A stretch of 40,988 nucleotides of DNA from a virus: the UHGV virus genome UHGV-0160030. One strand, given 5' to 3'. Made by a program: the position numbers and the translations under genes. The notes below the pieces were generated by a model. The model did not search any database. It had not been told where the DNA came from and saw nothing but the letters and a program-made list of their open reading frames with translations. This document shows positions 1-40,988 of this stretch, piece after piece. The first letter of the stretch is position 1; every line of letters starts with the position of its first letter.

Positions 1-575
1 CAGTAAATGGCGGCATGATTCGGCACCGATGAACCAAAACAGCACAGCAGCACATCGCCCGGCTGCGCCGCTGACAACGGCACCTGATACAGCCCTGTGG
101 CCTCCAGATTATCCAGATAGAGATTCTGGCCGTTACACCACCAGTCATCCTCACGATGAAAGTCCGGCATCTCAATCCCCGCCAGATGATAAGCATCCCG
201 GAACAGCGTGTAACAGTCCGTCGCCCCGTGCTCAAAGCGCCGCCCGGTAAGATGCGGCACACAGCGGAATTTATGAATCTCACCCCGGCAGACCAGCCAC
301 CAAGGCAAATCGCTCTGCACCTGCAGCCGCCTGTCAGCCTCACTCAGCCAGGGCAGGCCACCGGGGTGGCTGTGGACCAGCGCCACAATCTCACCCTGCA
401 TCTCTGCCCGCAGCCAGTCCTCCGGCGACATCCGGAAATACGCCTCCGGCTCACCGGAGATATTCACGCAGGGAAAATATCTTTCCCCTTCCGGCGTTCT
501 CACCACGAAGCCGCACGACTCCGCTGGCGCACATCGCCGGGCGTGCGCCAGAATCGCTGATTCTGTCTGTGTCAT
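1..575 (-). CDS. K: Tail assembly protein K, N-terminal 191 codons plus 2 nt (gene continues at window end)
   Basis: Minus-strand ATG at 575..573; translation MTQTESAILAHA... and ...AQPGDVLLCCFGSSVPNHAAIY match my recollection of lambda K; frame runs off the window start. Confidence 0.85.
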   Translation of the reverse strand, partial: MTQTESAILAHARRCAPAESCGFVVRTPEGERYFPCVNISGEPEAYFRMSPEDWLRAEMQGEIVALVHSHPGGLPWLSEADRRLQVQSDLPWWLVCRGEIHKFRCVPHLTGRRFEHGATDCYTLFRDAYHLAGIEMPDFHREDDWWCNGQNLYLDNLEATGLYQVPLSAAQPGDVLLCCFGSSVPNHAAIY

Positions 576-579
576 GGGA

Positions 580-1278
580 TTACTGCGAAAGTTTGTTAAT
601 GGAAAGGAAGCCGCCAAAGTTGCCGACGTTATTGCGGAACTTACAACCACTCAGGCATTTGCTGCATTTATCCTTCGTGATATCGGACGTCGGCTGGTCA
701 TATTCATCCGCAACCGCCGGACCGTGATAACCGCACTCATCACCGCGATAGGTCCAGGTGCAGGTGTTGGCCAGCATGGTACGTCCCGGAAAAACAGCAC
801 CATCCGTTTCCGTCGGCGTGGACAGTACAAAAGAGGCACTCACCGCGCTCAGTTCGCTGCACTGCTCGATGCGCCAGCGGCTGATCACCTCCTGCTCTGG
901 ATCGGCTTCGCTGTTTCCGTTGACGAAGTTCACCACATCCAGAAAACGGGCGTAAACCTTACGCCTGACCACCGTTCCGCCGACCAGACTCTGCAGGTCT
1001 TCCGCCATCCCGGTGACCATGCCGTGCAGATTAGAGACTTTCAGCGTTGGCCTTGCACTGGCTCCTTTGCCGTTCATCTCAAATCCACTTCCCTGAATGG
1101 GATAGGCCTGATACTGCCGCCCCTGCCAGGTGACTGGTTCACCTTTTTCGTTCTGCTCATTACAGAAGAAATAACGATCTCCGCCGACCTCTGTCAGATC
1201 AATTTCCCAGAGCACGACCAGCGCGGATTGCTCCGTTTTAGTGCACTCATTGAGTGTTTCCTGCTGTATATCCTGCAT
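580..1278 (-). CDS. L: Tail tip assembly protein L
   Basis: 232 aa, MQDIQQETLNEC...FGGFLSINKLSQ, near-identical to recalled lambda L; stop 4 nt upstream of K start. Confidence 0.9.
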   Translation of the reverse strand: MQDIQQETLNECTKTEQSALVVLWEIDLTEVGGDRYFFCNEQNEKGEPVTWQGRQYQAYPIQGSGFEMNGKGASARPTLKVSNLHGMVTGMAEDLQSLVGGTVVRRKVYARFLDVVNFVNGNSEADPEQEVISRWRIEQCSELSAVSASFVLSTPTETDGAVFPGRTMLANTCTWTYRGDECGYHGPAVADEYDQPTSDITKDKCSKCLSGCKFRNNVGNFGGFLSINKLSQ

Positions 1279-1577
1279 CAGTGAGTGACCTCTTCAAAGG
1301 TACAGTTAAAATCGGTATACATGGCATTATCCGAAATGCTCCACTCCCTGCAGACAACCCGGACAGTCCTGTTGTGTTTTGGCGGACGCCACAAAAAAGC
1401 ACGAACCCCGGCATGACGGGATAAAAAACTGTCCAGCGCGGCACGGGAATATTCATCCGTGACACGAAATACCGGTTTAAACGTTTTCAGATCTGCATTC
1501 AGACCACCAGCCCGTCGCTGTTCATATCCGTCACCGAACTTTACCGTAATAACAGATGGCTTTCGTGTCGTCTCCAT
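1278..1577 (-). CDS. M: Minor tail protein M
   Basis: Position between H and L; FGDGYEQR...FLW.PP motifs as in lambda M; start chosen at ATG 1577 (METTRKP...) because track ORF begins at an upstream non-conserved start; TGATG stop/start overlap with L. Confidence 0.75.
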   Translation of the reverse strand: METTRKPSVITVKFGDGYEQRRAGGLNADLKTFKPVFRVTDEYSRAALDSFLSRHAGVRAFLWRPPKHNRTVRVVCREWSISDNAMYTDFNCTFEEVTH

Positions 1578-1611
1578 CCCCTCGCGGGGGATCCAGTTAA
1601 AAACTTCAGAC

Positions 1612-4600
1612 TCAGGCACTGCATAATCCTCCGTCCCGACGTGATGACTGCATAATTGACACAACCCTGCTGTCGATCAGATCCACCAGTCCCTTGGCTG
1701 ACTGCGTATCTATCTCGCCATTGCTCCCTTTATTCTGAATACTGATGTGATATACGGGAGAATAAACAAATCCACCGCCACCATTCACATTGCCAATGGC
1801 TCTGACTCCAAGAGAGCCGTCCGCTGCCCGAGTCAGTGGCATGATAGCTTCAGGCCCGGCCTCGCCCATCAGCCCGGCACCTTTCGCAAAAGCAAAATAC
1901 GTCGGGGTATCCACAATGGTGTTACTGTAAGCACTCAGATTTGCCGATGTATAAACACCACCTTTTGCGTTTGCCACTGCACCGGAAAGCCAGTCGCCGA
2001 CTGTACCAAGCCATCCTCCGGCACCGGACATGCTTTTGGAAAGTGACTTCAGCCCGTTAACGATGGCAGCGTTCATCAGAATTTTTGAAACTTCCTGGAG
2101 AATTGAACTCCCCCAGTTTCTCCAGTCCACAACATTTCCGGCCAGTGCATCGGAAATATTTGATACCAGCCCGTCCATCGTGGAAACGACAGCATCTGCC
2201 GCCTGCGAAGCATAATCGGTGGCACTGTCTGCCCAGTTCGTCAGCCCCTCTTTGAGCCCGGCATTCCAGTTACTGCGTAAAGCATCAGCCTTTACATAAT
2301 AATCCTGCTGATCGCTGAGACGCTCTTCCAGATATTTTTTATTCAGCTCTTTCTCCTGTTTCCACAGGGCTTCTTCAATTTCTCCGGCCTGATACTGTCT
2401 CAGTAGCTCGTTATTTTTCTGCTCAAACTCCTGCCGGATGCTCCACATTTCCTGAAGTCGTTCACGCATCCGTGAGCCTTCACCATATCCCAGTAACTGA
2501 GCCTCATTTGATGCTCTGACACTGGCATTACTGTCCGCCAGACTGCTCTCATACGCAGCAAGCTGCTCACGAATCTTTTTCTGGTCGATAAGTGCTGCAT
2601 TCTGCAAAAGCGTTTTTTTCTGCGCTTCTGACAGGGTTGATAATTCGCCCTGACTGACCTGATATTTCATCTTAGCCAGTTCAGTATTCTGCCCTGCCAG
2701 TGCTATCTGTTCTTTTTGCTGTTTAATCAGCCGTTTATAAATATCCTCTGTTTTTTCCGCTTCGGTCTTTTTATGCGCTTTGGGTTTATTTGCCTGGTTA
2801 TTTCGCCATGCATCCAGTGAGTTATTTATATAATTCAGTCTTGCTGTCTGATACGCCTCTCCCACAAATCCGAGATCATCCGCAGCATAACCCAGGCGGG
2901 CACGCTCACGAGCTTCCCCCTTCAGGCGGGACAGAGCCAGTTCGCGCTCGCTGTTATTCAGTGCGGTCTGCTGTTTATCATCCAGGGTTGCCTGTGGTAG
3001 CCGTAACGGTACATTCACCAGCCCCTGTCGCTGCTGAAGTAATTCATTACCGAGCCCGAGAAGGCGATTAAACTCGGTATGCTGCCCATTCATGATCAAC
3101 AGGGACTGATACGCTTTGTTTTGTTCCGCTGCCTGTTGACGGATCAACGCCACCCGTCGCTCCTCCAGCCCGGCAAGCACATCCTGAATGGATTGCGCTT
3201 TGCCCTGCATTTGAGTGAGGCGAGACTGTTCAACTGCCAGTTGATTTGTTGCTTCTGCAAGCCCTTCTGTGACAGTTTTTACCGACGTCATGTGGTTAAT
3301 CATAAAACCGTTATCGGTTGTCCAGCCCGGGTTTGCCAGCACATACTGATAGCCAGCAATTTTTTCCTGTAAGGATTTAATCTTACTTTTCTGCTCGTCA
3401 ATTAACCTGTTTTGCTCCTTCAGTGCCTGTCGCGTCTTTTCCTCATTATCTGACGCTTCAGGAAGCGACATTGCCGACGTTTTCTGGCGAATTTCGTCGA
3501 TTGTTGCGGCATACTGGCGTGCAGATTCTCTGGCCTGCTCCTGATTCTGATACATCGTGTACCAGGCCGCAGCCCCCAGCATGACGAGTCCCGGCACACC
3601 ACCAACCAGCCCCAGCGCGCCACTTAATAAACGACTCCCCACTGACGTAACATTATTCAGCGTTGTCTGTGCCGCTGTTCTGGCCGCAATATTACGGGTA
3701 AGTGACACCTGGGCAGCTGTCAGCTTCGCTTCTGCTGCGGCCTGCCTTTCGGTACCGCGAGCAGCAACAACCGCCTGTTGCGCACGATAAACCGCCGCAC
3801 GCGCCCTGGCGGTTGCTATCTGTGTCCCCCGAAGTTGCACTTCAGCAAGAGCCACTTCGTTTCTGGCTGCAGTAATTAATCCGGCAGTTGCAGATCCAGC
3901 AGACGACGCCATATTGCCAAAATATCGGGCTACCCCGACGGCAACCAGAGCACCAGCAGCGGTTGCCACGGTGTCAATATTGCCTGCAATACCATTCAGC
4001 ACACCGGAGAGCGTCTTCGTCACTCCGCTTGCCTCGTTCGCACCACCAACCCAGGCCATAAAGGCGTTTTCAACTTTGGTTGCAGAGGATGAAACCGTAT
4101 CAGGCATTGCTGCATATTCATCACGCAACGCCCCAAGCTGACTAATCAGTGCAGGAACAACCTTATCGGCGGTCAGTTTTCCGTTATCCGCCATGGCCTT
4201 CAGATCCTTACGGGCAACCCCCATTCCCGCAGCCAGCGCACGAATAACACGATCGCCGTTCTCATTCACCGAGTTAAACTCTTCACCGCGCAGCACTCCC
4301 TGCGCCAGTGCCTGACTGAACTGCGTGATCACCGAACTGGCTTCTGCTGTACTGGCACCGGATAATTTCAGGCCCGTGGAGATCGCCTCGGTGACTTTCA
4401 GTACCTCCTCAGAACTGTAACCATACTCCCGCATGGAAGCTGCAGAACGGGCAAAAAGGCTGGCGTTATCAGAAAACGCCGTCCCCGTTCTCTGGCTGAT
4501 CGCCATTAATTCACGCTGTGATGACTGAAAATCATCACTGGACTGTGAGGCCTGCTTCAGACGGGCATTTACTGAATTCCACTCATCAGCGAGAGAAATA

Positions 4601-4857
4601 AGATGACCGGTAGCAAAAGCCCCGGCAAATGCCCCCGCCATGTTCAGTGCCGAAGATTTAGCTGTATTTATCTGATCCGTCACTTCTGCCAGTGCACGCC
4701 GCATTTCACGGGATGCAGCAGCGGACTGTCGGCCTCCGTTCTGCATGGTACGGTAGTAATCCTGCCCCATACGCGAAGCCCGGGAGATCTCTGACTGGAA
4801 TGACCGGGAATTTGCCGAGATTTTAATAATCAATTCACGTAATGTCGCCACACTCAT
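1612..4857 (-). CDS. H: Tail tape measure protein
   Basis: 1081 aa, coiled-coil rich, Gly-rich C-terminus, position between G/T and M. Confidence 0.85.
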   Translation of the reverse strand: MSVATLRELIIKISANSRSFQSEISRASRMGQDYYRTMQNGGRQSAAASREMRRALAEVTDQINTAKSSALNMAGAFAGAFATGHLISLADEWNSVNARLKQASQSSDDFQSSQRELMAISQRTGTAFSDNASLFARSAASMREYGYSSEEVLKVTEAISTGLKLSGASTAEASSVITQFSQALAQGVLRGEEFNSVNENGDRVIRALAAGMGVARKDLKAMADNGKLTADKVVPALISQLGALRDEYAAMPDTVSSSATKVENAFMAWVGGANEASGVTKTLSGVLNGIAGNIDTVATAAGALVAVGVARYFGNMASSAGSATAGLITAARNEVALAEVQLRGTQIATARARAAVYRAQQAVVAARGTERQAAAEAKLTAAQVSLTRNIAARTAAQTTLNNVTSVGSRLLSGALGLVGGVPGLVMLGAAAWYTMYQNQEQARESARQYAATIDEIRQKTSAMSLPEASDNEEKTRQALKEQNRLIDEQKSKIKSLQEKIAGYQYVLANPGWTTDNGFMINHMTSVKTVTEGLAEATNQLAVEQSRLTQMQGKAQSIQDVLAGLEERRVALIRQQAAEQNKAYQSLLIMNGQHTEFNRLLGLGNELLQQRQGLVNVPLRLPQATLDDKQQTALNNSERELALSRLKGEARERARLGYAADDLGFVGEAYQTARLNYINNSLDAWRNNQANKPKAHKKTEAEKTEDIYKRLIKQQKEQIALAGQNTELAKMKYQVSQGELSTLSEAQKKTLLQNAALIDQKKIREQLAAYESSLADSNASVRASNEAQLLGYGEGSRMRERLQEMWSIRQEFEQKNNELLRQYQAGEIEEALWKQEKELNKKYLEERLSDQQDYYVKADALRSNWNAGLKEGLTNWADSATDYASQAADAVVSTMDGLVSNISDALAGNVVDWRNWGSSILQEVSKILMNAAIVNGLKSLSKSMSGAGGWLGTVGDWLSGAVANAKGGVYTSANLSAYSNTIVDTPTYFAFAKGAGLMGEAGPEAIMPLTRAADGSLGVRAIGNVNGGGGFVYSPVYHISIQNKGSNGEIDTQSAKGLVDLIDSRVVSIMQSSRRDGGLCSA

Positions 4858-4867
4858 TCTCCGGACG

Positions 4868-4889
4868 AAAAAAAACCGCCGAAGCGGTT
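4868..4889 (-). terminator. Stem-loop (AACCGC-cgaa-GCGGTT) followed by U-run on minus-strand transcript, between T and H
   Basis: Read directly: plus strand aaaaaaaaccgccgaagcggtt. Confidence 0.45.
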
Positions 4890-4897
4890 ATGTTGAC

Positions 4898-5188
4898 TCA
4901 CTGAGACACTATTAAAAGCGCGTTTTCCAGTCCAGCAAATGGATCTGATACGCCTTCTGTCTGCTCCTTCTCCCACTGAAGAAGCGCATCATTCAGTGGC
5001 ACTTTGACCCCCTGCGCACCGTAAACAGCTGAAACAATCTGGGCAGCCCGGATATCAGCCCGTTCGTCCCCCAGCGGGCTGAACCTGTCAAATTCTGCCC
5101 ACATCATGATTTCTGATGCGGACATTTCCCGGCGTAACTCTGACAATGTGCGCCCCATCCTGAGCGCCAGCATCATCAGAAAACGCAT
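4898..5188 (-). CDS. T: Tail assembly chaperone frameshift extension (T-like segment, expressed as G-T fusion)
   Basis: ORF in -1 frame relative to G, begins immediately after the A AAA AAG slippery site; synteny G-T-H. Confidence 0.6.
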   Translation of the reverse strand: MRFLMMLALRMGRTLSELRREMSASEIMMWAEFDRFSPLGDERADIRAAQIVSAVYGAQGVKVPLNDALLQWEKEQTEGVSDPFAGLENALLIVSQ

Positions 5189-5199
5189 CCCCGGAAGCG

Positions 5200-5571
5200 C
5201 TACTTTTTTTTAACCTCGCCGGCATCACTGATTAGTTCCAGAGACTGCCGAAGAAGCCGCGCATGCACCGGGCCATACACGGCAATCACCTGTTCACGAT
5301 CATCCTCTGAAAATACAGGTTGCAGTCCGGTATCACACAGAACATCGATGAACAGTTCAACATCCGCTTCCAGATTTCGGCGGGCGCGCTCCGCAACGGA
5401 TAACGGTGTCTCATCATCTTTTGCTTTAACGATCTCCTGCCAGCGCAACCAGGCTTCTGCAGAAGGTTCCCGTAATACAACCGTTGCCCCTTCCCATTCA
5501 GGCACATCAACAGTTTTATGGCGAAACCCCGACATCGTTGCCAGTGCCAGATTACGGATATTTTTAGTCAT
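5200..5571 (-). CDS. G: Tail assembly chaperone (G-like)
   Basis: Position between major tail protein and tape measure; start at ATG 5571 preceded by AGGA; the track start at 5586 overlaps the V stop. Confidence 0.6.
   Translation of the reverse strand: MTKNIRNLALATMSGFRHKTVDVPEWEGATVVLREPSAEAWLRWQEIVKAKDDETPLSVAERARRNLEADVELFIDVLCDTGLQPVFSEDDREQVIAVYGPVHARLLRQSLELISDAGEVKKK
5203..5211 (-). promoter_or_regulatory. Programmed -1 ribosomal frameshift slippery site (A AAA AAG) at 3' end of G
   Basis: Minus strand reads gtt aaa aaa aag tag; shifting -1 continues into the T-like ORF. Confidence 0.6.
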
Positions 5572-5585
5572 CACATCTATCCTCA

Positions 5586-6290
5586 TTAACTGACGGTAAC
5601 AGTGCAGGAAGTAGAGGTCACTTTGTTAACCGGGCTTGCTGAATCAGAAATCTCGCAGGTATATGCACCCGCATAACCGGATACTGCCGATGCCTTACTG
5701 AACGTTGCCGCCGTCTGTCCGGAAACAGGAGAACCACCTTTCTTCCAGACATAAGAATAAGGCGGCACACCACCCGCAGCCTCAACCGCCATTTCAAGTT
5801 TCGATCCGGAAGCAACCCGCAGCGTGCTTTTTAAATCGACCTTCACTTTCAGCGGCTCTGTCGTCAGCACAGGTTTACCTTTCAGGCGCAGAGAAAACGT
5901 TGCAGCCACAACACCATTGGTTCCTGCAGACCAGGTATGCTGACGCACCTCTGCCATAAAGGTAAATCCGTTGCCTGACGGAAAAATAACTTTAAAGCCA
6001 TACGTGGTGTCATTGTCATAGGCACTGCGCAACGCGTTCTGGGCAGCATTGAGGTAAAAGTTGCCTGACATGGAAATCTCTGAAGCAGCACCAAGGCCGT
6101 TAATATTTTCCTGCTCAACAGAACACAGCGTGGTGACATCAATATCCTGCTTTTGTCCTGCAGTAAACTGCACCTCTTTGATTGTACAGCTCAGGCCAAG
6201 ATAGCTGGCAGAATCCAGGGTTTCTGCTGTTACCGGTGCAGACGAAATCATAATTTTCGTCAGTTGCGAACGCTCAAAATTAGAGGACAT
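5586..6290 (-). CDS. V: Major tail protein with C-terminal Ig-like domain
   Basis: 234 aa from ATG 6290 (MSSNFERS...) with GGAG upstream; position and size as lambda V; C-terminal Thr/Ser/Val-rich segment. Confidence 0.75.
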   Translation of the reverse strand: MSSNFERSQLTKIMISSAPVTAETLDSASYLGLSCTIKEVQFTAGQKQDIDVTTLCSVEQENINGLGAASEISMSGNFYLNAAQNALRSAYDNDTTYGFKVIFPSGNGFTFMAEVRQHTWSAGTNGVVAATFSLRLKGKPVLTTEPLKVKVDLKSTLRVASGSKLEMAVEAAGGVPPYSYVWKKGGSPVSGQTAATFSKASAVSGYAGAYTCEISDSASPVNKVTSTSCTVTVS

Positions 6291-6303
6291 ACTCGTCTCC
6301 TGA

Positions 6304-6328
6304 AAATAAAAAACCCGCCAGCGGCGGG
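6304..6328 (-). terminator. Stem-loop (CCCGCC-agc-GGCGGG) plus U-run between tail-terminator gene and major tail gene
   Basis: plus strand aaaataaaaaacccgccagcggcggg. Confidence 0.45.
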
Positions 6329-6349
6329 TGGGTAAAATCATTAACGACC

Positions 6350-6694
6350 TCAGGCTATTACCTGAAATTCAAGCGTGGCTCTGCTCAGACGGGAGTCAGG
6401 ATCATACCCCTGCGTTTTAGAAATAACGGAGGGTGCCAGTTTCCTTACTGCATCAAGCGCCTGCTCACGAATATCATCTGCGTCATCAGGTACTGTCGCC
6501 CAGACATCGATCTGCACGGTAATTCTGGATTCAGCCTGCCCATCAAGCACATCAGATGCCGTGTCAGACACCACAGAAAACACCAGCCACGGCGGAGATA
6601 CCGCAGGCTTTCCCTCCGTCAGCGGGACCACATAAGGATAAACCTGTCCTCCGGCCAGCTGAGACAACAGGGAATACAGTGTGCCCTCCCTCAT
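6350..6694 (-). CDS. Tail completion / tail terminator-like protein
   Basis: 114 aa; synteny directly upstream of major tail gene. Confidence 0.5.
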   Translation of the reverse strand: MREGTLYSLLSQLAGGQVYPYVVPLTEGKPAVSPPWLVFSVVSDTASDVLDGQAESRITVQIDVWATVPDDADDIREQALDAVRKLAPSVISKTQGYDPDSRLSRATLEFQVIA

Positions 6695-7140
6695 TTACTT
6701 AAGACCTCATCAATAGCCTGATTCATTCGCTGTATGGCAACCTGCGCCGCCAGCTCCTCTGTCGTATCGAAAGCCGGGCGAATGAATGGATGCGCGGGCA
6801 TGTTTATCGTTCCCAGCTCCACAAAGCGCCAGTAAAATGCATTTCGGGGATCGCTGGCTTTCATGCTGTTATCACTGTTTCCGGTTCGCAGGTTCCGTCC
6901 GCGAATGTGGACACCCGAGATAATTTCCCCCCGACGCTTTGAACGCTGAGTGAGAACAACCACATTTTTCTTCAGTTTCCCGGTTCGCTCCGGCGCACGT
7001 TCAACAACTGCATCCCGCATAACTTCAGCACCGGCACGGGTGGCATCGCGCAGAACCTTATTGTTTTCTGCCCTGCTGAGCGTCTCCAGATCCCGTGCAA
7101 TATCCGCCAGGCCGGAAAAATCAAGACTGAAATCCATCAC
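6691..7140 (-). CDS. HK97 gp10-like head-tail joining protein
   Basis: 149 aa; conserved-looking PAHPFIRPA motif; synteny. Confidence 0.55.
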   Translation of the reverse strand: MMDFSLDFSGLADIARDLETLSRAENNKVLRDATRAGAEVMRDAVVERAPERTGKLKKNVVVLTQRSKRRGEIISGVHIRGRNLRTGNSDNSMKASDPRNAFYWRFVELGTINMPAHPFIRPAFDTTEELAAQVAIQRMNQAIDEVLSK

Positions 7141-7475
7141 ACATTCCCCTTCAGGCTGCAGAGTATTTCAAGCCGGGTAGCGCGTGCATCCGGTATTGGT
7201 GGACCTTCTATACCCAGAATGGCCCCTTTAAATGCACCGGTCAGCACTTTCAGACGTGAAGTCGCTGTCACATCGCGCCGGAATCTCATCCAGACTCTGA
7301 CCGTAGCCTGAGCGGTTTCTGCTCCGCCTGAGATTATCTCCCTCCCGCTGATACCCTTAACTTCTGCCCATACGGTAGCTCCCTCCGTCACCGTCTCCAC
7401 CGGATGCCCTGACGGAGAGCGGGCGGTGGTGACATTCAGAATAATTACGCGATCACGTAATCTGCCCGCCTGCAT
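7137..7475 (-). CDS. Head closure / head-tail adaptor protein
   Basis: 112 aa; synteny between connector and gp10-like genes. Confidence 0.5.
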   Translation of the reverse strand: MQAGRLRDRVIILNVTTARSPSGHPVETVTEGATVWAEVKGISGREIISGGAETAQATVRVWMRFRRDVTATSRLKVLTGAFKGAILGIEGPPIPDARATRLEILCSLKGNV

Positions 7476-7483
7476 GTCTCCTC

Positions 7484-7801
7484 CTACAAAGGAATAAAAC
7501 GATAAGGCTCCAGCAGAGAAGAAAAACCAAACGGGACTGGTGCCTTGCTGACATCTGAGGAATTTTCCCGGTTTTCGTACCAGTGCCCGACCAGCAACAT
7601 GAGCGCCAGCAAAACATCATCAGCTATAAGCACCCCTTCAGGATCACCTTCCGGCACCGTCTCCTCATAAAGCTTACGGTTGATAAAATTTTCTGCCTTG
7701 CGGCAGGCAGCCCGGAAATACAGCATCAGTAACTCATCATCAGTTGCATCATCTGTATCAATACGGCACTGCGCCCTGAGTTTTTCCACTATTGCTGCCA
7801 T
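7484..7801 (-). CDS. Head-tail connector (gp6-like DNA packaging protein)
   Basis: Start at ATG 7801 (MAAIVEKL...) with AGGAG upstream; the upstream part of the track ORF overlaps a terminator hairpin. Confidence 0.5.
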   Translation of the reverse strand: MAAIVEKLRAQCRIDTDDATDDELLMLYFRAACRKAENFINRKLYEETVPEGDPEGVLIADDVLLALMLLVGHWYENRENSSDVSKAPVPFGFSSLLEPYRFIPL

Positions 7802-7834
7802 CAGAAACTCCTGCCCGCAACACTGTGCGGGCAT

Positions 7835-7856
7835 AAAAAAACCGCGTCGGCGCGGT
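7835..7856 (-). terminator. Intrinsic terminator-like hairpin (ACCGCG-tcgg-CGCGGT plus U7) immediately downstream of major capsid gene
   Basis: plus strand aaaaaaaccgcgtcggcgcggt. Confidence 0.55.
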
Positions 7857-7877
7857 CTGTAACTGAACAACGAGTGG

Positions 7878-9095
7878 TTATTTGCCAGTGAGCGCCTTGA
7901 TGGCTGCCACATCTTCCAGCACACAGTCAAAACGATGGAAAGCCAGAAATGCCACCTGATCAAACTCAGCATAACGCTCAACCAGACGTTTCAGTTCCAT
8001 ATAAGTAACGCGGCGAATGATAAAGCGGTTGAAATCCCCCAGGAAAATGAATTTTTTTCCGGTACCAATCCCGTCAATAGCCTGATCAATAACATAAGGG
8101 ATCCCCAGCACAGTAGCCGGCGTACCGCCTGCAATATCCGGCAGCCATAACGGGCGTTTCTGCCCATCCTCCATCTCTTCAATAGTCTGCAATGTGGCAT
8201 CATTGAATGCCCAGCGGTATTTCGGCCCACCACGATATGCCGGATCAATGGCATGTTTCAGGGCATTCATTTCTTTCCAGGTGAAAGCGGCAGAGGCTGC
8301 AGTCTGGATGGTTCCCGTCACCGACGCTGCCAGCCCTTTTGGCTGTAACGGTGATCCCGTTCCGGTCCCCTGAACCAGATATTTTGCCTCTCCACGACCA
8401 ATACGCTGGGCAATACGGTTTGCCAGATAAGATTCAATATCCACCCCACTGTCCTGGAGCAGCTCATTGGACACACGAATTATTTTTGATGACAGCTTTT
8501 TAGCCCCCAGAATAGCGGTCCCGAACGTCACATCCTGTTCCGTTGCGGCTGTATTTTCCGCCAGCAGTTCGCCCTCTTCAGTCGTGCCATCAGACGTTGA
8601 CCAGGTGATATCCTGCCCGGTTGATGTGGTCAGAAGTTGCGCCACACTGGCAATCCCGCCATAAGCCTTCATGGTGTCAATGATTTTGTTACGCATCTGC
8701 GTGGGCACCGTATATCCGCCCTGAGAATCCGTTGTTACACTCTGAGCCCGCAGTTCACGCATCAGATTACGCTCTTCAGCATTCAGTTCTGCAAATCCGG
8801 CACGCAGAAAACGGTTAAATGCCGCAGCGCGCTTCTCTTCCACCGCCTTTTTCCCGTTCTCCGCCTCATTATTCTGGCGCTCTTCCGGCCCGGACTCATC
8901 CACATATGCCTGATCCTGACGGCGCAACTCTTCTTCACGGGCGATTTGCTCATCCAGCGCATCCAGCTCAGCTTTCGCCCTGTTCCACTCTGCCCGTTGC
9001 TCATCAGTCCATGCGTTATCACCAATTTTTTCATGCAGTGCACGCATATCCTTTGCAATGGTGTTTCGTTTTTGCTTCATCTCATGAAGTTTCAT
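7878..9095 (-). CDS. Major capsid protein, HK97 fold, with N-terminal coiled-coil delta/scaffold domain
   Basis: 405 aa; N-terminal coiled coil (EQRAEWNRAKAELDALDEQIAREEELRR); synteny protease-portal upstream. Confidence 0.85.
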   Translation of the reverse strand: MKLHEMKQKRNTIAKDMRALHEKIGDNAWTDEQRAEWNRAKAELDALDEQIAREEELRRQDQAYVDESGPEERQNNEAENGKKAVEEKRAAAFNRFLRAGFAELNAEERNLMRELRAQSVTTDSQGGYTVPTQMRNKIIDTMKAYGGIASVAQLLTTSTGQDITWSTSDGTTEEGELLAENTAATEQDVTFGTAILGAKKLSSKIIRVSNELLQDSGVDIESYLANRIAQRIGRGEAKYLVQGTGTGSPLQPKGLAASVTGTIQTAASAAFTWKEMNALKHAIDPAYRGGPKYRWAFNDATLQTIEEMEDGQKRPLWLPDIAGGTPATVLGIPYVIDQAIDGIGTGKKFIFLGDFNRFIIRRVTYMELKRLVERYAEFDQVAFLAFHRFDCVLEDVAAIKALTGK

Positions 9096-9109
9096 CGTCA
9101 GTAGTATCC

Positions 9110-9709
9110 TTATGCATTAAGAAGGGTCAAAAGACGCTCACGCGCCATTCGTTCGTTAACAGCTTTCTTCAGCGCACCACTCGCCCGCGCTTCCTGCCAG
9201 GCTTTCATTGAGCGGACACCAGAGTCTGCGTCCTGATAGGCCGGATATGTCACCGGGCTGACGTCATACAGACGAGAAATGCGCGTGATTTCCCGGATAA
9301 CAATCCCCTCGTCGTCTTCATACCAGCTCTCTCCGTCACGGGCGACACGAAACGCGAACGAGGACTGATTAATGTCACCACGCAACATTGGAGACAGCAC
9401 CAGGTCACAAATAGTCGGAGTATCCGGTGCAACAATGTCATAACGTAAACCGCGTTCATCCACCGACAATGACAACGTGCCGGCAGAACTTCGTCCGAGA
9501 ATGAAATTAGGATCATGATTAAACAAGCCACGTACATCATCATTCAGTACATCATCAAAAGCCCCCGGCTTGATGATTTCACGAAATCCCCACAGAGGTT
9601 CTGAACGACTGTTAAATACCGAGCCATACCCCAGAATGTGGGTCGGGGCATTATCATATTGTTCCGCCCGCACCTCCCCGCTGTAACAGCGCGTTTCACG
9701 GTCATTCAT
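9110..9709 (-). CDS. Prohead maturation protease (HK97 family)
   Basis: 199 aa; position between portal and capsid; overlaps portal 3' end. Confidence 0.8.
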   Translation of the reverse strand: MNDRETRCYSGEVRAEQYDNAPTHILGYGSVFNSRSEPLWGFREIIKPGAFDDVLNDDVRGLFNHDPNFILGRSSAGTLSLSVDERGLRYDIVAPDTPTICDLVLSPMLRGDINQSSFAFRVARDGESWYEDDEGIVIREITRISRLYDVSPVTYPAYQDADSGVRSMKAWQEARASGALKKAVNERMARERLLTLLNA

Positions 9710-10928
9710 CGTTCTTTTCCTCTTTGCCTTTCGTATCTTTAAAGTTATTCAACGGATTTGCTGCATTTACGCTGACCAGCATTTCATCCAGACCGTCAAC
9801 CGGGTTCATATCCTCAAATGCCCTGGCTTCATTCCGACTCATCCAGCCATCTGTAATGGCAAAGTGATAGAACTGCGCACGCTCCTGTGGGGTCCCACGG
9901 AGCAACCCCGTGAGGTTGAAACGAACGTAATACCCGGCAGCCCGTTCTGTACGGGTAAACAGGCGACGGTTAAGCTCCTGCTCCCAGTTCGCAACCCAGG
10001 GCATCATCGTGTAGCGAACAAACTGAATCGCCTGCTGCGTAATATTCGAAAATGTGGCTTTTTCCAGGTCATTAATCATGTGCGCCGGGACATTAAAAAT
10101 CCCGGCAATCATCGACCGGTTCAGCTTGGTCATATCAATGATCTGAGCATCCACCGGAGAAACTGTCAGAGCGCGGTAATCCAGTTGCGCAGGCAGCAAC
10201 ATGGTTTTATTTTCCTGGCTGCGAAGCGCTGTCACCGCCCGCTGCCACATATTTTTAAGCCTGCCCCAGCTTTGTTCGTTCAGTTCATTTTTCACAGAAA
10301 TAATACCGGCAGGACGGGCATTACCGTTAAAAAAGGCGCTGGTATACTGCTGGCCACTCATTCCCATACCAATGGTTTCAGCATGCTGCATGATCGGGCT
10401 CAGTCCCATTTTCTGATTGTTTCCCAGCGCCCTGATATGGATCATGTCGTCCGGACTTACCGCAAATGCACCCTCTTCGTTATACACCCCGTAAGTATGA
10501 CGCCCACCGGTGTTAAGTAACGTGGTTTCCCATGGCATACAGCATTCAAGGCTGGTAACCTCTCCACGACGATTACGTTTTACCCACGTATAACCATTGC
10601 CCCACCCCAGCACATGACGCTGCTTCAGTTCCCGCCACTTATAGCTGGTCTGCCAGGCATTAGGTTCATCATGAACGAGCCAGAACAACGGATGATCGCG
10701 TGCCGGCTGAACATGCTCATTCGTTTTTCGCATCACATGCAGGGGCATCTGAGCCACACTGGATGAAATAACATAAATACAGGCATAGACAGCAGCCAGC
10801 TTCATGGATGTTTCCGGACTGACATACACATCCCGGGCAAAAATATTATCCGTCTCAGCGGCCTCTCCGGTTACCGGAACCGAGGGATTTTCCAGAGGCT
10901 CACTGCGAAACAGAGCATCAAGAAGCAT
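9702..10928 (-). CDS. Portal protein (HK97 family)
   Basis: 408 aa; synteny downstream of terminase. Confidence 0.8.
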   Translation of the reverse strand: MLLDALFRSEPLENPSVPVTGEAAETDNIFARDVYVSPETSMKLAAVYACIYVISSSVAQMPLHVMRKTNEHVQPARDHPLFWLVHDEPNAWQTSYKWRELKQRHVLGWGNGYTWVKRNRRGEVTSLECCMPWETTLLNTGGRHTYGVYNEEGAFAVSPDDMIHIRALGNNQKMGLSPIMQHAETIGMGMSGQQYTSAFFNGNARPAGIISVKNELNEQSWGRLKNMWQRAVTALRSQENKTMLLPAQLDYRALTVSPVDAQIIDMTKLNRSMIAGIFNVPAHMINDLEKATFSNITQQAIQFVRYTMMPWVANWEQELNRRLFTRTERAAGYYVRFNLTGLLRGTPQERAQFYHFAITDGWMSRNEARAFEDMNPVDGLDEMLVSVNAANPLNNFKDTKGKEEKNDE

Positions 10929-21709: not shown

Positions 21710-21710
21710 C

Positions 21711-27531: not shown

Positions 27532-27609
27532 CAACAAATATGCTCTGAACGTTTATTGCGGTTTTATCGCCGGGGATTGTTACAATCTTAATCCACAGGA
27601 GGATTTATT

Positions 27610-27723: not shown

Positions 27724-27726
27724 CAA

Positions 27727-28301: not shown

Positions 28302-28491
28302 GTGGGTCCACCAGCAGGCGTTGCTGGTCCTGCGGCGGTACAGATGCCGACGTATATTCCCGCATCGGATACAGCGCAACGGATATCTCAGTCTGAAGGT
28401 TAACCGTCGCTGGCGGCTGTTATCGAAAGACGACGGCCGGAACTGGGAAATAATGAGTCATGAACGTTATTCGGGAGAAATAAAGAAATGA
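28273..28491 (+). CDS. Hypothetical arginine-rich small protein (72 aa)
   Basis: GTG start 6 nt after AGGAGG; Arg-rich LLVLRRYRCRRIFPHRIQRNG...RRWRLL. Confidence 0.5.
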   Translation: MTLTATRIPEWVHQQALLVLRRYRCRRIFPHRIQRNGYLSLKVNRRWRLLSKDDGRNWEIMSHERYSGEIKK

Positions 28492-28880
28492 TCGACAACC
28501 GCACCGCCAGCGCCATTGACCAGGCATTACAGAAACATGATACACCCGTCGGCCCGTTATTTTTTGTAACACATCACGGAAGAACAAAAAAATGCCTCAC
28601 TCGAAAAACGGCAATTCGTTACCTGGCATTCTTTATGACCACCCGCGCTTTTGAACGTTCAGGATTCCGACAACGCCATCCTGACAAGCGTTTTATCTTC
28701 AACGGGAATGAAATATGGAAACGTGGAGAATCAACCACAGAGTACACCCGCGCACACCAGCGAACAATCAGACGACTGCGCAGACTCATCGCCAGGAAAC
28801 AGTATACAGAAAAATGGTTCAGAAAATATGACACATGGAGCGCCGGATATTACGAACTGATGGCAACAAAACCATTCTGA
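28488..28880 (+). CDS. Hypothetical basic protein (130 aa)
   Basis: ATGA overlap with previous gene. Confidence 0.55.
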   Translation: MIDNRTASAIDQALQKHDTPVGPLFFVTHHGRTKKCLTRKTAIRYLAFFMTTRAFERSGFRQRHPDKRFIFNGNEIWKRGESTTEYTRAHQRTIRRLRRLIARKQYTEKWFRKYDTWSAGYYELMATKPF

Positions 28881-28940
28881 CGTAAACGAAATTAACCATG
28901 ACGCAATTAAATAAGGCAAGCTGAATACAGCAGGAGGACC

Positions 28941-29129
28941 ATGAACATTTATTTCAGAATAGTTATATCACTGGCAATTATCGCATGTATTTACGGATTG
29001 CTCGTCCCGTTTCTGATATCAATGAAGGATACGGTAGCGGTGATTTCTGGCTTTGCACTGACGTTTCTAACCCCGCCATGTATTTATACCATTTATAAGG
29101 GGCTTTCTTTCACTAAGGATAAAAGATGA
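28941..29129 (+). CDS. Small two-transmembrane-helix protein (62 aa), coupled to SPFH gene
   Basis: AGGAGG RBS; two hydrophobic helices; stop overlaps start of next gene (ATGA). Confidence 0.65.
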   Translation: MNIYFRIVISLAIIACIYGLLVPFLISMKDTVAVISGFALTFLTPPCIYTIYKGLSFTKDKR

Positions 29130-29953
29130 AAAAAATTATTTTTTCTTTAGCCATTGTTCTGCCTGCCATTGGCCTTGTCGGTTGTGATCGTGTTGAGCCT
29201 GGTAATGTGGGCATCAAAGTCAACAAACTTGGCGACGACAAAGGCGTCGGTGAAGTGGTCGGTGTTGGTCGCTACTGGACAGGCTGGAACACTGAAGTTT
29301 ATATCTTCCCGACCTTTAAGCAGATGAAGACCTACGATGATCCATTCAGTTTCCAGATGAGCGATGGAACAACCATTGGTTACCACATCGGAGTAGCCTA
29401 CAAGGTTGATCCATCCAAAGTTACCACAGTCTTTCAGACCTACCGCAAAGGCGTGGACGACATTACCGACACCGACCTGCGCCAGAAGATAGCCGACGCA
29501 CTCAACCGACTGGCCAGCAAAATGACCACCGACAAATTTATCGACGGCGGCAAGTCTGAGCTGCTGGATGCAGCTCTTAAAGACATTCAGGAAGAAATGA
29601 CGCCCATCGGTATTCAGGTAATAAGCCTCTCATATGTGGGTAAGCCGGAGTACCCGCCTACTGTTATCGACAGCATTAATGCCAAAGTCACGGCGAACCA
29701 GAAAACTCTGCAACGCGAGCAGGAAGTAAAACAGCGCGAAGCGGAAGCCAACATGTTGCGCGCGGAAGCTGCCGGACAGGCTGATGCGATTCGCACAAAA
29801 GCCCAGGCTGAAGCCGATGCTATTCGTTTACGCGGTGAAGCTCTGCGTCAGAACCCCGGTGTTATGGAGCTGGAAGCCATCAATAAATGGAACGGCACGC
29901 TGCCGCAATACATGACCAGCGGTGCCAATACACCATTTATCCAGGTTAAATAA
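29126..29953 (+). CDS. SPFH/band-7 (stomatin/prohibitin/HflKC-like) domain lipoprotein
   Basis: 275 aa; signal peptide with lipobox LVGC; coiled-coil Ala/Glu/Gln-rich C-terminal region typical of SPFH proteins. Confidence 0.7.
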   Translation: MKKIIFSLAIVLPAIGLVGCDRVEPGNVGIKVNKLGDDKGVGEVVGVGRYWTGWNTEVYIFPTFKQMKTYDDPFSFQMSDGTTIGYHIGVAYKVDPSKVTTVFQTYRKGVDDITDTDLRQKIADALNRLASKMTTDKFIDGGKSELLDAALKDIQEEMTPIGIQVISLSYVGKPEYPPTVIDSINAKVTANQKTLQREQEVKQREAEANMLRAEAAGQADAIRTKAQAEADAIRLRGEALRQNPGVMELEAINKWNGTLPQYMTSGANTPFIQVK

Positions 29954-30024
29954 CTTAATATGCCCGGCAGGCCGTCGGGCTAAGGGAAAAGCAGATAAAC
30001 ACTCATAATACTCAACCGCAAATA

Positions 30025-30366
30025 ATGAACTATGACCCAAATCTGACGTCATGCGGACGCATGGCGAAACAAACCGTTCGATTAACTTTCGGGCAATGGG
30101 AATACCGCGAAACATTCGAAGTCACTGTCGGTGGCAACCTGACCGGACTCGATGTTATCAGTTGCGCTATTGAAAGCCTGTACGCAACGCTGCCTTATGA
30201 AGAAGTCGAGGATGAGCGTACAGGGGAAACAGATATCATGGCCACCATTAATATTGGCGAACTGACATGCCAGGATGAAGACCTGTCCGGAGAGCTCTGG
30301 CTTGCCGGGATGCTTATCTCAGCAGAAATTATCAGTATTGAACCCGCTACAAACATACGGCTCTGA
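30025..30366 (+). CDS. Hypothetical acidic protein
   Basis: ORF; start ambiguous (ATG 30025 or 30061), both with weak RBS. Confidence 0.4.
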   Translation: MNYDPNLTSCGRMAKQTVRLTFGQWEYRETFEVTVGGNLTGLDVISCAIESLYATLPYEEVEDERTGETDIMATINIGELTCQDEDLSGELWLAGMLISAEIISIEPATNIRL

Positions 30367-30397
30367 AGTTCTCACTATTCAGAGAGCAGGAGAAAAA

Positions 30398-30640
30398 ATG
30401 TTCGCTTTGATTAATCAGGGACAACTGTATACCGACAGTGCCGGTTACCCGGTAATAATTATTCGCTGCATAAACAACACTGTGTTGTACAGAAGAATTG
30501 ATGGGCGAACACAGTCAGTAAAAATAAACGATTTCAATGAACTGTTTGAACGGATTGATCACCAGGAATACCGACAAATTCTGGCAGAAACAGAGCAGGA
30601 GGCTCATCTGAAAAAATTACGGGCCATGAAAAGGAAGTAA
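30398..30640 (+). CDS. Hypothetical protein (80 aa)
   Basis: ATG 30398 preceded by AGGAG; the track start is an upstream extension. Confidence 0.55.
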   Translation: MFALINQGQLYTDSAGYPVIIIRCINNTVLYRRIDGRTQSVKINDFNELFERIDHQEYRQILAETEQEAHLKKLRAMKRK

Positions 30641-30798: not shown

Positions 30799-31035
30799 AT
30801 GGGCAATGTGATTCAACTGGCTCCCAATGAATGGGTTTGTGAAAGCGTTCTTATCGCAATTACCGGGCTCAAACCAGGCACAATTCTTCGGGCCCGGAAA
30901 GAATGCTGGATGGTTGGAAGAGAGTATATTCACGTATCACCAGACGGTAATCCAAAGCCTTCCAGTGAATGTATGTATAACAGAAAAGCAATAGATGCCT
31001 GGGTCGCCTCAATGAAAAACAAACAACCCAGGTGA
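30799..31035 (+). CDS. xis: Excisionase-like small protein
   Basis: 78 aa directly upstream of integrase, same strand; GAGG RBS. Confidence 0.6.
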   Translation: MGNVIQLAPNEWVCESVLIAITGLKPGTILRARKECWMVGREYIHVSPDGNPKPSSECMYNRKAIDAWVASMKNKQPR

Positions 31036-32404: not shown

Positions 32405-32630
32405 TCCTTAATACCCGTCATGTTAACTGCGTGATACGGGATTTTTAAAAATCACTAAAGAACGCCCAAGAGCATGTGTTTTCTTTAGAATAATCAAAGC
32501 GTTGGATTGCCATGTCATATGAAAATCGGCAAAGTTCATATGTAACAAAGTGTCCCAATCATGCCCCAAAATGCCCCACAACAAATATTTTTGCCCCATG
32601 CATGCCCCAAAAAATCACTTTCCCTCACCC
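32405..32630. other. attP region
   Basis: Located at int 3' end as in lambda; contains direct repeats and a hairpin after int; core not definable without a host sequence. Confidence 0.45.
32551..32610 (+). repeat. Four to five direct copies of (A)TGCCCCA, candidate arm-type integrase/accessory factor binding sites
   Basis: atgcccca at 32561, 32571, 32602; tgcccca at 32592; degenerate tgtccca at 32551. Confidence 0.6.
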
Positions 32631-32695: not shown

Positions 32696-32944
32696 ATGCG
32701 TATTGAAATCTGCATAGCCAAAGAAAAAATGACTAAAATGCCAACCGGTGCTGTGGATGCGTTAAAGGAAGAATTAACCCGACGCATCAGTAAACGTTAT
32801 GACGATGTAGAGGTGATCGTAAAAGCCACCAGCAACGATGGCCTTTCTGTTACGCGCACCGCCGATAAAGATTCAGCTAAAACTTTTGTTCAGGAAACTC
32901 TGAAAGATACCTGGGAGTCTGCTGACGAGTGGTTTGTTCACTAA
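32696..32944 (+). CDS. dinI: DinI-family protein (SOS-inducible RecA modulator)
   Basis: 82 aa; [27 protein letters not shown]...[16 protein letters not shown] closely resembles recalled E. coli DinI; AGAGGGA RBS. Confidence 0.8.
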
Positions 32945-35848: not shown

Positions 35849-36448
35849 TCAGAAACGGTATCCGATACCAACAATAAATGCATCCGTTCGCCAGTCGCCA
35901 CTGCCGGAGCCTTCATAAGCAATATCAATGGCCACGGATTCGGTCGGGTTAAACTGCACGCCAGCTCCCCACGCCAGAGAGGTATTGCTGTGGCGACCGT
36001 CATCACTTCCGGTCAGCACGTCGTGCGTTTTCCCCTTGTTGTCAGTTACGCGGAGATAATCCCCGGAGAAAGTCGACACACGGCTGTAAGCCACACCCGC
36101 GATCGCATACGCGCTGAACCATTCATTCACGCGCACAGACGGCCCCGCCATCACGCTGAACCAGCGGTTACGCACGGAATCTTCATGCCAGCGGGTATCG
36201 CTGTAATGCGTTTTTTGCTCATCTTTGGCATTGGCATAACTGAATGACGTCACCAGCCCCAGCGTGTCCGTAAATTCATAACGGTATTTCACGTTAATGC
36301 CCTTCAGGTCATCGCTGCCTGGCATATCAGTATGGGTCTGAAGATACCCGGCGCTTAGTGTGGACTGATGCTCTGCTGCGCTCGCTGGCGTACCAGCGGC
36401 AACCAGCCAGACTACTGCGGACAGAATAACAGCACATAATTTACGCAT
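35849..36448 (-). CDS. lom: Outer membrane beta-barrel protein Lom (Ail/Lom family)
   Basis: 199 aa; signal peptide; C-terminal aromatic residue (IGYRF); position between J and stf as in lambda. Confidence 0.85.
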   Translation of the reverse strand: MRKLCAVILSAVVWLVAAGTPASAAEHQSTLSAGYLQTHTDMPGSDDLKGINVKYRYEFTDTLGLVTSFSYANAKDEQKTHYSDTRWHEDSVRNRWFSVMAGPSVRVNEWFSAYAIAGVAYSRVSTFSGDYLRVTDNKGKTHDVLTGSDDGRHSNTSLAWGAGVQFNPTESVAIDIAYEGSGSGDWRTDAFIVGIGYRF

Positions 36449-39500: not shown

Positions 39501-40214
39501 CAGATGATAATTACGGCTCACCTGCTGGCTGCCGAACTGTTCCGAGTCCACCTGTACGCCGACCAGTGCCGTGTTCGGGTAGCACTGTTTCACATCGATG
39601 ATTTCGGTGTATGACGACCAGAGCGTTTTGTTCTGCAGCTGGTCTGTGGTGCTGTCCGGCGTCATCCTGCGCATCCGGATATTAAACGGGCGCGGCGGCA
39701 GGTTATCCACCACCACCGAGGCCAGATACTGCGAGGTGGTTTTGCCTTTAATGGTGATGTCTTTTTCCGTCACCCAGCCACCATTACGCTGTATCTGAAC
39801 CAGCAGGCGGACTTCCGACGGATTCCGGTCACCCTTTGAGGTGGTTTCCACCAGTGCCTGCACACCGAAGGTAAAGCGCAGACGGTCGATGTTTGCCGAC
39901 GTGATGGTGCGGGTGATCGGCGTGTCATATTTCACTTCTGTACCGAGCACCGTCTCGGAGCCGGAGGATTCAAAACCTTCCGGCGGTGTCTGCTCCTGCT
40001 CACCTGCCCGGAACACCACCGTGACGCCGGAGATGTTGGTATTCCCCTCACTGTCCAGCACCGGCGTACTGTTCAGCAGCACGCTTTTTAATCCATCCAC
40101 CGGACCTTCAATCGGCCCTTCGCTGATGGCATCAATCACACTCAGCAACTGCGTGGATTTCAGGTTGTCCTTCGCTTCGCGCGGGGTATGCCCCTTACTG
40201 CTTCCTTTGCCCAT
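36516..40214 (-). CDS. J: Central tail fibre / host specificity protein J
   Basis: 1232 aa; N-terminal ~900 aa match recalled lambda J ([37 protein letters not shown]...); C-terminal region longer and divergent. Confidence 0.9.
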
Positions 40215-40274
40215 TCGTCATGCTCCATAAACGACAAAACCGCCCGGAGGCGGTTTCACATGAAATATTTTGCA

Positions 40275-40922
40275 TCAGCGGCCAATCACCACAACCTGAC
40301 CACCGTCCCCTTCATCTGCCGTGCTGATCTCCTGAGAAACCACACGAGACCCCACGCGCATTTCACCGTACAGAACAGGCAGAACATTGCCCTGGGCAAC
40401 CATGTTATCCAGTGATGAGAAATAGGTGTTCTGCTTACCGTTATCCGTGCTGGTCGCTGTGGGCGTCCGGGCTTTCGGTGCCAGCATCTGGGCCACACCA
40501 CCCAGGATCATACTGGCCCCTGCCGCATACATGCCCGATACAGCCGCGGCACCCAGCCAGCCCACAGGGTTCCACCATGCCACCGCAATCAGCGCCGCCC
40601 CCAGCACCACCTGAAACACACCGCCACTTTTAGCTCCCGCCAGACGCGGCACGATGTGGATCACGGCACCATTTGCCAGCGGCTCATTAAGACGGGCAGA
40701 TAATTCGGTTTCACCTGCATCACGCCCGGCAATGCGCACCTGATACCAGCCGTCATTCAGTTTCTGACGAAACGCCGGGAGCTGTGTGGACAACGCCCGG
40801 ATGGCTTCAGCCCCCGTTTTTACACGAAGGTCGATGCGGCGGCCAAATCGTTGTAAATCCCCGTAAAGGCAGATGCGTGCCATGCCCGGTGACGCCAGAG
40901 GGAGTGTGTGCGTCGCTGCCAT
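40275..40922 (-). CDS. I: Tail assembly protein I
   Basis: 215 aa; MAATHTLPLASPGMARICLYGDLQRFGRRIDL...VVVIGR matches recalled lambda I. Confidence 0.9.
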   Translation of the reverse strand: MAATHTLPLASPGMARICLYGDLQRFGRRIDLRVKTGAEAIRALSTQLPAFRQKLNDGWYQVRIAGRDAGETELSARLNEPLANGAVIHIVPRLAGAKSGGVFQVVLGAALIAVAWWNPVGWLGAAAVSGMYAAGASMILGGVAQMLAPKARTPTATSTDNGKQNTYFSSLDNMVAQGNVLPVLYGEMRVGSRVVSQEISTADEGDGGQVVVIGR

Positions 40923-40988
40923 TTGTCGGTATACCTCTCTCGTTTGCTCAGTTGTTCAGGAATATGGTGCAACAGCTCACCGTCGCCG
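40820..40988 (-). CDS. K: Tail assembly protein K, C-terminal segment (continuation of the gene that starts at 575)
   Basis: Minus-strand translation from window end: (C)GDGELLHHIPEQLSKRERYTDKWQRRTHSLW..., stop at 40822..40820; overlaps I start as in lambda. Confidence 0.8.
   Translation of the reverse strand, partial: GDGELLHHIPEQLSKRERYTDKWQRRTHSLWRHRAWHASAFTGIYNDLAAASTFV

Follow-up and report, generated by a model that had tools for sequence, protein, structure and literature searches.

UHGV virus genome UHGV-0160030 is a stretch of viral DNA comprising 40,988 nucleotides (nt); this whole stretch is called the window in the following. It contains the lambdoid modules for packaging, head, tail, lysis, late antitermination, replication, immunity, and integration, each of them once and in lambdoid order, and all are intact as judged by Pfam and the annotation of relatives. 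The composition is that of an HK97-type head with probable HNH-assisted cos packaging, a lambda-type tail, and an early region and integrase similar to those of phiP27. The original prediction had taken the window for a whole circular phage genome, whose two ends join in frame inside tail gene K and in which every gene is present once. We are highly confident that it is the complete, single-copy genome of a temperate lambdoid siphophage in its attP form, represented as a circle which was opened arbitrarily within K. The features are listed in Table 1.

The window ends join within tail gene K

The first bases of the window are cagtaaatgg..., the last ones ...caccgtcgccg. Concatenating end to start and translating across the junction, as had been proposed, gave a single minus-strand open reading frame (ORF) for K: positions 575..1 and 40988..40820 form 744 uninterrupted nt, which code for 247 amino acids (aa) plus stop (MTQTESAIL...SSVPNHAAIY-C-GDGELLHHIPEQLSKRERY...AASTFV). 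The 5' part provides 191 codons ending with ...SSVPNHAAIY and, in addition, the bases TG. Together with C, the complement of base 40988, these make up the codon TGC for Cys 192, which is split by the window ends; the stop codon TAA is found at 40822-40820. Each of the translation details predicted before (SSVPNHAAIY plus tg, the codon tgc, the motif AAIYCG, and the stop at 40820) was correct, and gene I comes after K at the window end as in lambda, with J being next.

By chance alone, one out of three joins would be in frame. Chance is ruled out because of the identity of K with its homologues, a Pfam domain that extends across the junction, and gap-free DNA alignments. The joined K is identical at 247 of 247 positions to K of the E. 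coli razor3 prophage (NZ_CP176051.1, 2130.7-2173.0 kb), which PGAP names C40 family peptidase, and at 245 of 247 positions to K of the Escherichia phage PhiR49_2 (PV340570.1, host ECOR13). The comparison with lambda K gave 196 identities over 205 aligned lambda residues; the sequences are identical through CCFGSSVPNHAAIYCGDGELLHHIPEQLSKR, AAIYCG included. Pfam assigned Prok-JAB to residues 3-105 (E = 2.6e-14) and a complete NLPC_P60 domain to residues 111-224 (model positions 1-105 of 105, E = 6.5e-13), which straddles the junction residue 192. Both the JAB/MPN N-terminal and the NlpC/P60 C-terminal domain of a lambda-type K are complete, with L located upstream and I downstream.

At the DNA level, a 6-kb piece centred on the junction 40988/1 was aligned with 0 gaps to two relatives, with 98.8% identity in the case of PhiR49_2 and 98.3% in that of the razor3 prophage. 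In the JNEC-KY173 prophage (NZ_AP045169.1, 2252.9-2293.9 kb), the block corresponding to window 32423-40988 (99.977%, 2 mismatches, 0 gaps) directly abuts the block corresponding to window 1-4889. Since the alignment across 40988/1 is free of gaps in three independent genomes, no base was lost or doubled at the join. Direct repeats of at least 40 nt connecting the window ends were not found, and the junction shows neither a frameshift nor a duplication, both of which had been named as contrary signs. The break in K came about at an arbitrary position when the sequence was assembled or written out, and does not constitute a biological end.

A comparison of codons 1-50 revealed that the homologue of the N-terminus of the window K (MTQTESAILAHARRCAPAESCGFVVSTPEGERYFPCVNISGEPEA) is located in lambda (NC_001416) at 14128-14290, in another frame than the annotated K. 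The annotated lambda K consists of 199 aa and starts with MSPEDW; after GEPEA, the lambda frame is shifted by one base in comparison with the window phage, and therefore the annotated lambda K lacks the start of the JAB domain.

Collinearity with related prophages

Prophages with about 98% identity are widespread in E. coli, and the closest full-length relatives of the window are E. coli prophages located in yecE, with 98-99.98% identity depending on the module. The razor3 prophage is 99.4% identical over window 1-17576 and 98.1% over 17609-32433; the JNEC-KY173 prophage is 99.98% identical over 32423-40988. Both have the gene order of the window over the whole length and the same att core, but they are integrated, with attL and attR in yecE, whereas the window possesses attP. 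Core to core, the window is collinear with these two prophages apart from one or two blocks that are replaced and some short stretches without a match; therefore, it contains no host DNA. Large internal repeats are absent from the window, and in combination with the collinearity this means that each gene is present once. The claim that a whole phage genome is given, with no gene repeated, is thus borne out by the modules, the collinearity, and the lack of repeats. The exact mosaic of the window was not found in 5,426 complete E. coli genomes, plasmid records, or the other collections searched. An exact-sequence cluster look-up of four window proteins identified common E. coli prophage proteins; two queries had no match, which is probably due to the choice of start codons.

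The two prophages differ from the window in a few places. In the prophage of JNEC-KY173, the tape measure gene is preceded by an additional zinc-ribbon gene, and the replication-initiator block (window 22113-23003) is a different one. Between Q and the tRNA genes (window 17281-17609), the window keeps only a 92-aa remnant of a DNA methyltransferase (17281-17559), whereas razor3 contains at this place about 1.2 kb of extra DNA including a full site-specific DNA methyltransferase gene of 1,050 bp. The deleted methyltransferase form is common to the window, PhiR49_2, and JNEC-KY173.

The best match in the phage database is PhiR49_2, which is 99.6% identical over the structural genes (window 1-13453) and 98.8% identical over stf-J-I-K; integrase and att are the same. 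All structural ORFs of the window are intact and 99.6% identical to those of this propagated phage. In contrast, the immunity, early-left, and lysis-proximal blocks of PhiR49_2 are replaced or only 89-95% identical. As both sequences comprise 40,988 bp, we considered whether the window is a rotated version of PV340570.1. This was rejected: No rotation fits, and the BLAST result is a mosaic of 89-100% identity with several replaced blocks. These blocks are of unequal size (for example, window 13454-14948 versus 1,162 bp; 25092-30541 versus 6,135 bp), and the equal total length looks like a coincidence. An inspection of the record ends of PhiR49_2 (1-5 and 40984-40988; in window orientation ...TTAACTGTGTGGA / TGATACGG...) showed two to three host yecE bases and a split core. 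Evidently, this record starts at the att core and was cut in prophage coordinates, not at cos or at a clean attP. A literature search found no source paper for the PhiR/ECOR13 phage series.

Three further phages share parts of this organization. The Stx2e phage phiP27 (AJ298298 / NC_003356) is about 93% identical over window 20001-32433, which comprises the early region and the integrase, and it integrates in yecE; its annotated attL and its 10-nt cos align to the window core and the predicted cos, respectively. In contrast to phiP27, the window lacks stx and has tail genes of the lambda kind, and its cos 10-mer is CGCCGCCTGA instead of CGCCCGCCCC. HK97 (NC_002167) has, like the window, the HNH gene, cos, a P27-family small terminase, the large terminase, the portal, the S78 protease, and a capsid of the HK97 fold, as well as the cos-proximal motif; however, sequence identity is low (86/258 in K), and the HK97 att, which has a lambda-type core, and the early genes differ. 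Lambda shows the same order of tail tip genes (M-L-K-I-J-lom-stf) but differs in the head and terminase genes (cos with Nu1/A), in int and att (attB between gal and bio), in immunity, and in the length of K (199 versus 247 aa).

The attachment site and integration in yecE

The attP of the window reads ...ACCCGTCATG-TTAACTGCGTG-ATACGGGATTTTT... (P-core-P'). As a base-by-base comparison shows, the DinI side in lysogens is ...GCCCGCCACT-TTAACTGCGTG-ATACGGGATTTTT... and the int side is ...ACCCGTCATG-TTAACTGCGTG-GAGGGCAACACC.... Among the 5,426 complete E. coli genomes, matches on the DinI/tail-fibre side begin abruptly at window 32411-32423, and int-side matches stop at 32433 in all 26 chromosomes (26/26) that carry a prophage of about 98% identity with at least 80% coverage. 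According to their flanks, the prophages of the relatives reside inside yecE (DUF72), between yecD and yecN. The predicted empty attB, consisting of host arm, core, and host arm, is uninterrupted in yecE of 4,903 of the 5,426 genomes, in many cases at 100%. In agreement with these findings, the attL annotated in the phiP27 record is at the same position as the window core, and PMC8065619, which cites Recktenwald & Schmidt 2002, gives yecE as the integration site of phiP27.

The window thus has the phage arms of both attL and attR, joined by the core; the core occurs in attB, and the genes for an integrase with arm-binding and catalytic domains and for an excisionase adjoin. It is the non-integrated (attP) form of a yecE-integrating tyrosine-integrase phage of the phiP27 type. 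The block int/attP/b-region/tail fibre had been described as contiguous and hence as being in the free-phage arrangement. The site is a true attP, but "b-region" is a lambda term, and this place is occupied here by a DinI-like gene and two small ORFs.

An attP junction could also be an artifact, if a prophage had been excised in silico and rotated, or if attL and attR had been misassembled. Such edits do occur in this phage group, as the PhiR49_2 record with its two to three remaining nt of yecE makes evident. However, after a manual cut, leftover host bases or two copies of the core are more likely, as in PhiR49_2, whereas in the window junction P and P' cleanly flank one 11-bp core and no base of yecE remains, which is expected of site-specific excision or virion DNA. 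We regard it as very improbable that the junction is not real DNA.

One E. coli chromosome, CEA106S, has int and tail fibre adjacent, as in attP. This candidate was rejected, as it is the remnant of an IS1-mediated deletion that is still placed between the two halves of yecE. It is the only place with at least 80% coverage, and a contiguous attP of the window phage was not found in the 5,426 complete E. coli genomes. The latter result also bears on the idea that the window was cut, as a slice of one unit length, from a tandem double lysogen or a replication concatemer. A slice one genome long from attL-phage-attP-phage-attR would show an intact attP and in-frame ends as well, and among the matched Stx-phage records there are tandem or adjacent prophages (records of about 90 kb). 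Such a slice would have to comprise exactly one unit to the base (0 gaps); this is expected of a circular contig but would be a coincidence for an arbitrary slice. We regard this origin as just as improbable as an artificial junction.

The circular, non-integrated form of the sequence would also suit a phage that is kept as a stable circular episome, either as a phage-plasmid or in a carrier state, and not by integration. However, the window contains int, an excisionase, and an attP that matches an attB in wide use, and integrated relatives number in the hundreds. Neither the Pfam results for the window nor the PGAP annotation of the prophages with about 98% identity include partition or plasmid-replication genes, and no plasmid record covers at least 80% of window 20001-40988, which is the half that was searched. 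The window does not have the characteristics of a phage-plasmid, and we give this alternative next to no credence.

In the integrated state, the P arm (window 32386-32433) gives the 3' part of yecE a new N-terminus, …NTRHVNCVEGN… as compared to the native …EEYARHFNCVEGN…, and PGAP annotates in lysogens a DUF72 protein of 256 aa, which has a 19-bp overlap with the 3' end of int. The likeness of phage arm and yecE reaches imperfectly past the 11-bp core (CGYCAYKTTAACTGCGTG). The new N-terminus and the similarity beyond the core suggest that yecE may stay expressed in lysogens. In JNEC-KY173 (NZ_AP045169.1, locus 1-1400), the yecE fragment past the end of int is truncated and followed by a "recombinase family protein", which suggests a second mobile element in the same yecE gene.

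The predicted cos site and the mode of packaging

The 147-bp spacer between the genes for the HNH endonuclease and the small terminase (TerS) corresponds to the layout of HK97 (HNH, cos, P27-family TerS). It contains GGGGAGGGGCGGGTCAAATCTCTGCAACCCTGGCTGT followed by ...ACCGCCGCCTGA..., which is conserved with phiP27, SfV, and HK97. The 10-nt "cos-site" feature of phiP27 (CGCCCGCCCC) aligns to window 13400..13391 on the minus strand, and so does the right end of the HK97 record (...CGCCGCCAAA). When the window was aligned jointly with phiP27, for which cos is annotated, and with SfV and HK97, for which the record termini were used, the site fell at 13391-13400. The records of SfV, SfIV, and SfI, which are cos phages with this HNH gene, end 13-30 bases past the aligned HNH region. 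The virion DNA of HK97 has a 10-nt 3' overhang, and its HNH protein gp74 stimulates cos cleavage (PMC11331095). For the window phage, HNH-assisted cos packaging of the HK97 type is the likely mode.

The original prediction had also asked where the cohesive ends fall; by alignment, they are predicted at 13391-13400, away from the window ends. The window ends are arbitrary: The virion DNA would be linear, and "circular" describes an assembly or an intracellular form only. In this sense the earlier term is appropriate; for the virion, with its predicted cohesive ends, it is not.

Proposed life cycle and assessment

Based on the gene families involved, the following life cycle can be proposed. In the virion, a linear DNA would carry 10-nt cohesive ends, produced by cleavage between the HNH and small terminase genes at about 13391-13400. 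After injection, the cohesive ends would anneal, giving the circle as represented by the window. Int would then act on the 11-bp core TTAACTGCGTG (32423-32433) and its identical counterpart in the host yecE; their recombination would lead to the lysogen order yecD-yecE'-DinI...tail...head...lysis...Q...replication...cI...xis-int-'yecE. Int and Xis together would reverse integration and restore the exact attP junction of the window, and terminase and HNH would cut concatemers at cos.

Nothing in the window sequence contradicts its interpretation as a complete attP-form genome. The following points qualify it. The viability of the phage is deduced from intact ORFs. As a consensus sequence, the window would represent a cos phage either circularised in assembly or in its circular form inside the cell. 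Searches of IMG/VR, JGI metagenome contigs, and GTDB representative genomes for exact 25- to 30-mers of attP gave no hit, and there is no independent second sighting of the free form of the window phage; one diverged free-phage attP is on record (CharmingMan, 79%). The cohesive ends, about 13 kb from the window ends, are predicted by alignment at about 13391-13400, and the 10-nt sequence differs from that of phiP27 at 5 positions and from that of HK97 at 3.

The sequence might also stem from a real, abundant extrachromosomal circle, i.e. a yecE prophage in a carrier state or one that was spontaneously excised and replicating in an uninduced culture, and not from an assembly of virion DNA or a mere rotation of the record. 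We consider this improbable, if slightly less so than an artificial junction or a slice of a tandem. If true, it would suggest an unusually high excision rate or episomal persistence in a widespread E. coli prophage lineage.

Gene map

The gene map was deduced from ORFs and from Pfam searches with 20 window proteins, and names were cross-checked against relatives annotated by PGAP; the names of the early-left genes were taken from the PGAP annotation of prophages with about 98% identity.

Table 1. Features of UHGV-0160030 in the order of their positions in the window
Feature	Position	Strand	Basis or remark
Tail tip gene K, 5' part (codons 1-191 and first two bases of codon 192)	1..575	-	Pfam Prok-JAB, start of NLPC_P60
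L	580-1278	-	
M	1278-1619/1664	-	
Tape measure gene	1612-4857	-	
Tail chaperone genes G and T	within 580..5586 block	-	slippery AAAAAAG at 5203-5209
Portal, S78 prohead protease, HK97-fold major capsid, connector, head-closure, tail-completion, and major tail protein genes	5586..10928	-	Pfam Phage_portal, Peptidase_S78, Phage_capsid; further domains from identical neighbours
Large terminase gene	11076-12833	-	Pfam
Small terminase gene, Terminase_4/P27 family	12833-13315	-	Pfam
Predicted 10-nt cohesive end (cos), minus-strand CGCCGCCTGA	13391..13400	-	alignment; downstream of conserved GGGGAGGGGCGGGTCAAATCTCTGCAACCCTGGCTGT
HNH endonuclease gene, counterpart of HK97 gp74	13463..13813	-	Pfam HNH E = 1.9e-16; position compared with HK97; PMC11331095
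Lysis cassette: holin, YdfR-family protein, lysozyme, Rz/Rz1	14919..16550	-	ORFs, annotation of relatives
Three tRNA genes: CAT anticodon, Arg-TCG, Arg-TCT	16991..17240	-	downstream of Q
Late antiterminator gene Q	17711..18106	-	Pfam Phage_antitermQ E = 1.6e-52
DUF968 protein gene	between DnaB and Q	-	
Early-right genes	19404..25078	-	Pfam Phage_pRha, IstB_IS21, DnaB_C
DnaB helicase	19404-20804	-	Pfam DnaB_C
DnaC/IstB-like loader	20801-21709	-	Pfam IstB_IS21
Replication initiator	21711-22703	-	name "replication protein" from exact-sequence protein cluster look-up
Two Rha-family regulators	within 19404..25078	-	Pfam Phage_pRha
Cro-position gene, divergent from cI	25075..25302	-	position relative to cI in relatives
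cI-type repressor gene	25339..26070	+	Pfam HTH_3, Peptidase_S24 (S24 LexA-like)
Early-left accessory genes: HTH protein, small ORFs, SPFH-domain protein (29126-29953), DUF5406 protein	26174..30640	+	
Excisionase gene	30799..31035	+	Pfam DUF1233 putative excisionase E = 9.5e-33
Tyrosine integrase gene, 437 aa	31091..32404	+	Pfam Arm-DNA-bind_2, Phage_integrase
attP core TTAACTGCGTG, 11 bp, one copy in window	32423..32433		P arm on int side, P' arm on DinI side
DinI-like gene	32696..32944	+	Pfam DinI E = 1.1e-19; between tail fibre and attP
Two small ORFs after side tail fibre gene	33359-33637 (92 aa), 33062-33349 (95 aa)		
Side tail fibre gene, 687 aa	33634..35697	-	
Lom/Ail outer-membrane protein gene	35849..36448	-	ORF map, relatives
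Tail tip / host specificity gene J, 1232 aa	36516..40214	-	
Tail assembly gene I	40275..40922	-	Pfam Lambda_tail_I E = 1.3e-24; PGAP gives same 215-aa protein in relatives
Tail tip gene K, 3' part (third base of codon 192 to stop)	40820..40988	-	joined K identical to razor3 K

In the tail region, the longest ORF of gene I overlaps the 3' end of K; its true start may be located further downstream. Public assemblies contain the exact J protein in 134 blocks, mostly of E. coli chromosomes of megabase size. The two small ORFs after the side tail fibre gene are likewise on the minus strand, but a gene for tail-fibre assembly (tfa) is missing there; razor3 and similar relatives have only a truncated tfa pseudogene at this place.

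Between the lysis genes and the HNH gene, window 13814-14950 has a low GC content (about 44% versus about 51% overall) and contains, besides an ORF of 88 aa, a YfbU-family gene that is read from the other strand (13952-14491, +). This block looks like a moron insertion; PhiR49_2 has different DNA in its place.

ARAGORN assigned the tRNA with the CAT anticodon to Met, PGAP in relatives to Ile; it is probably of the lysidine-modified Ile2 type. In Stx phages, ileZ-argN-argO and then stx follow at the position of the tRNA cluster downstream of Q. No stx genes were found in the window. For the product of the cro-position gene, Pfam gave no match. The early-left accessory genes (window 26759-30640, +) may have a role in exclusion or defence. 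An ORF of 72 aa in this region (28273-28491) has an identical copy in JNEC-KY173, which PGAP labels "ParE family toxin-like protein".

Implications

The window represents a kind of phage that is already known, widespread, and ordinary, and the finding opens no new biological question. Its value is a practical one: The window can be used as a full phage genome, since its ends truncate no gene, K being complete, and duplications are absent. For annotation, the origin is best moved either to attP or to cos, at about 13.39 kb on the minus strand. The integration site, an 11-bp core in yecE, and the likely mode of packaging are useful for reading other findings in the window.

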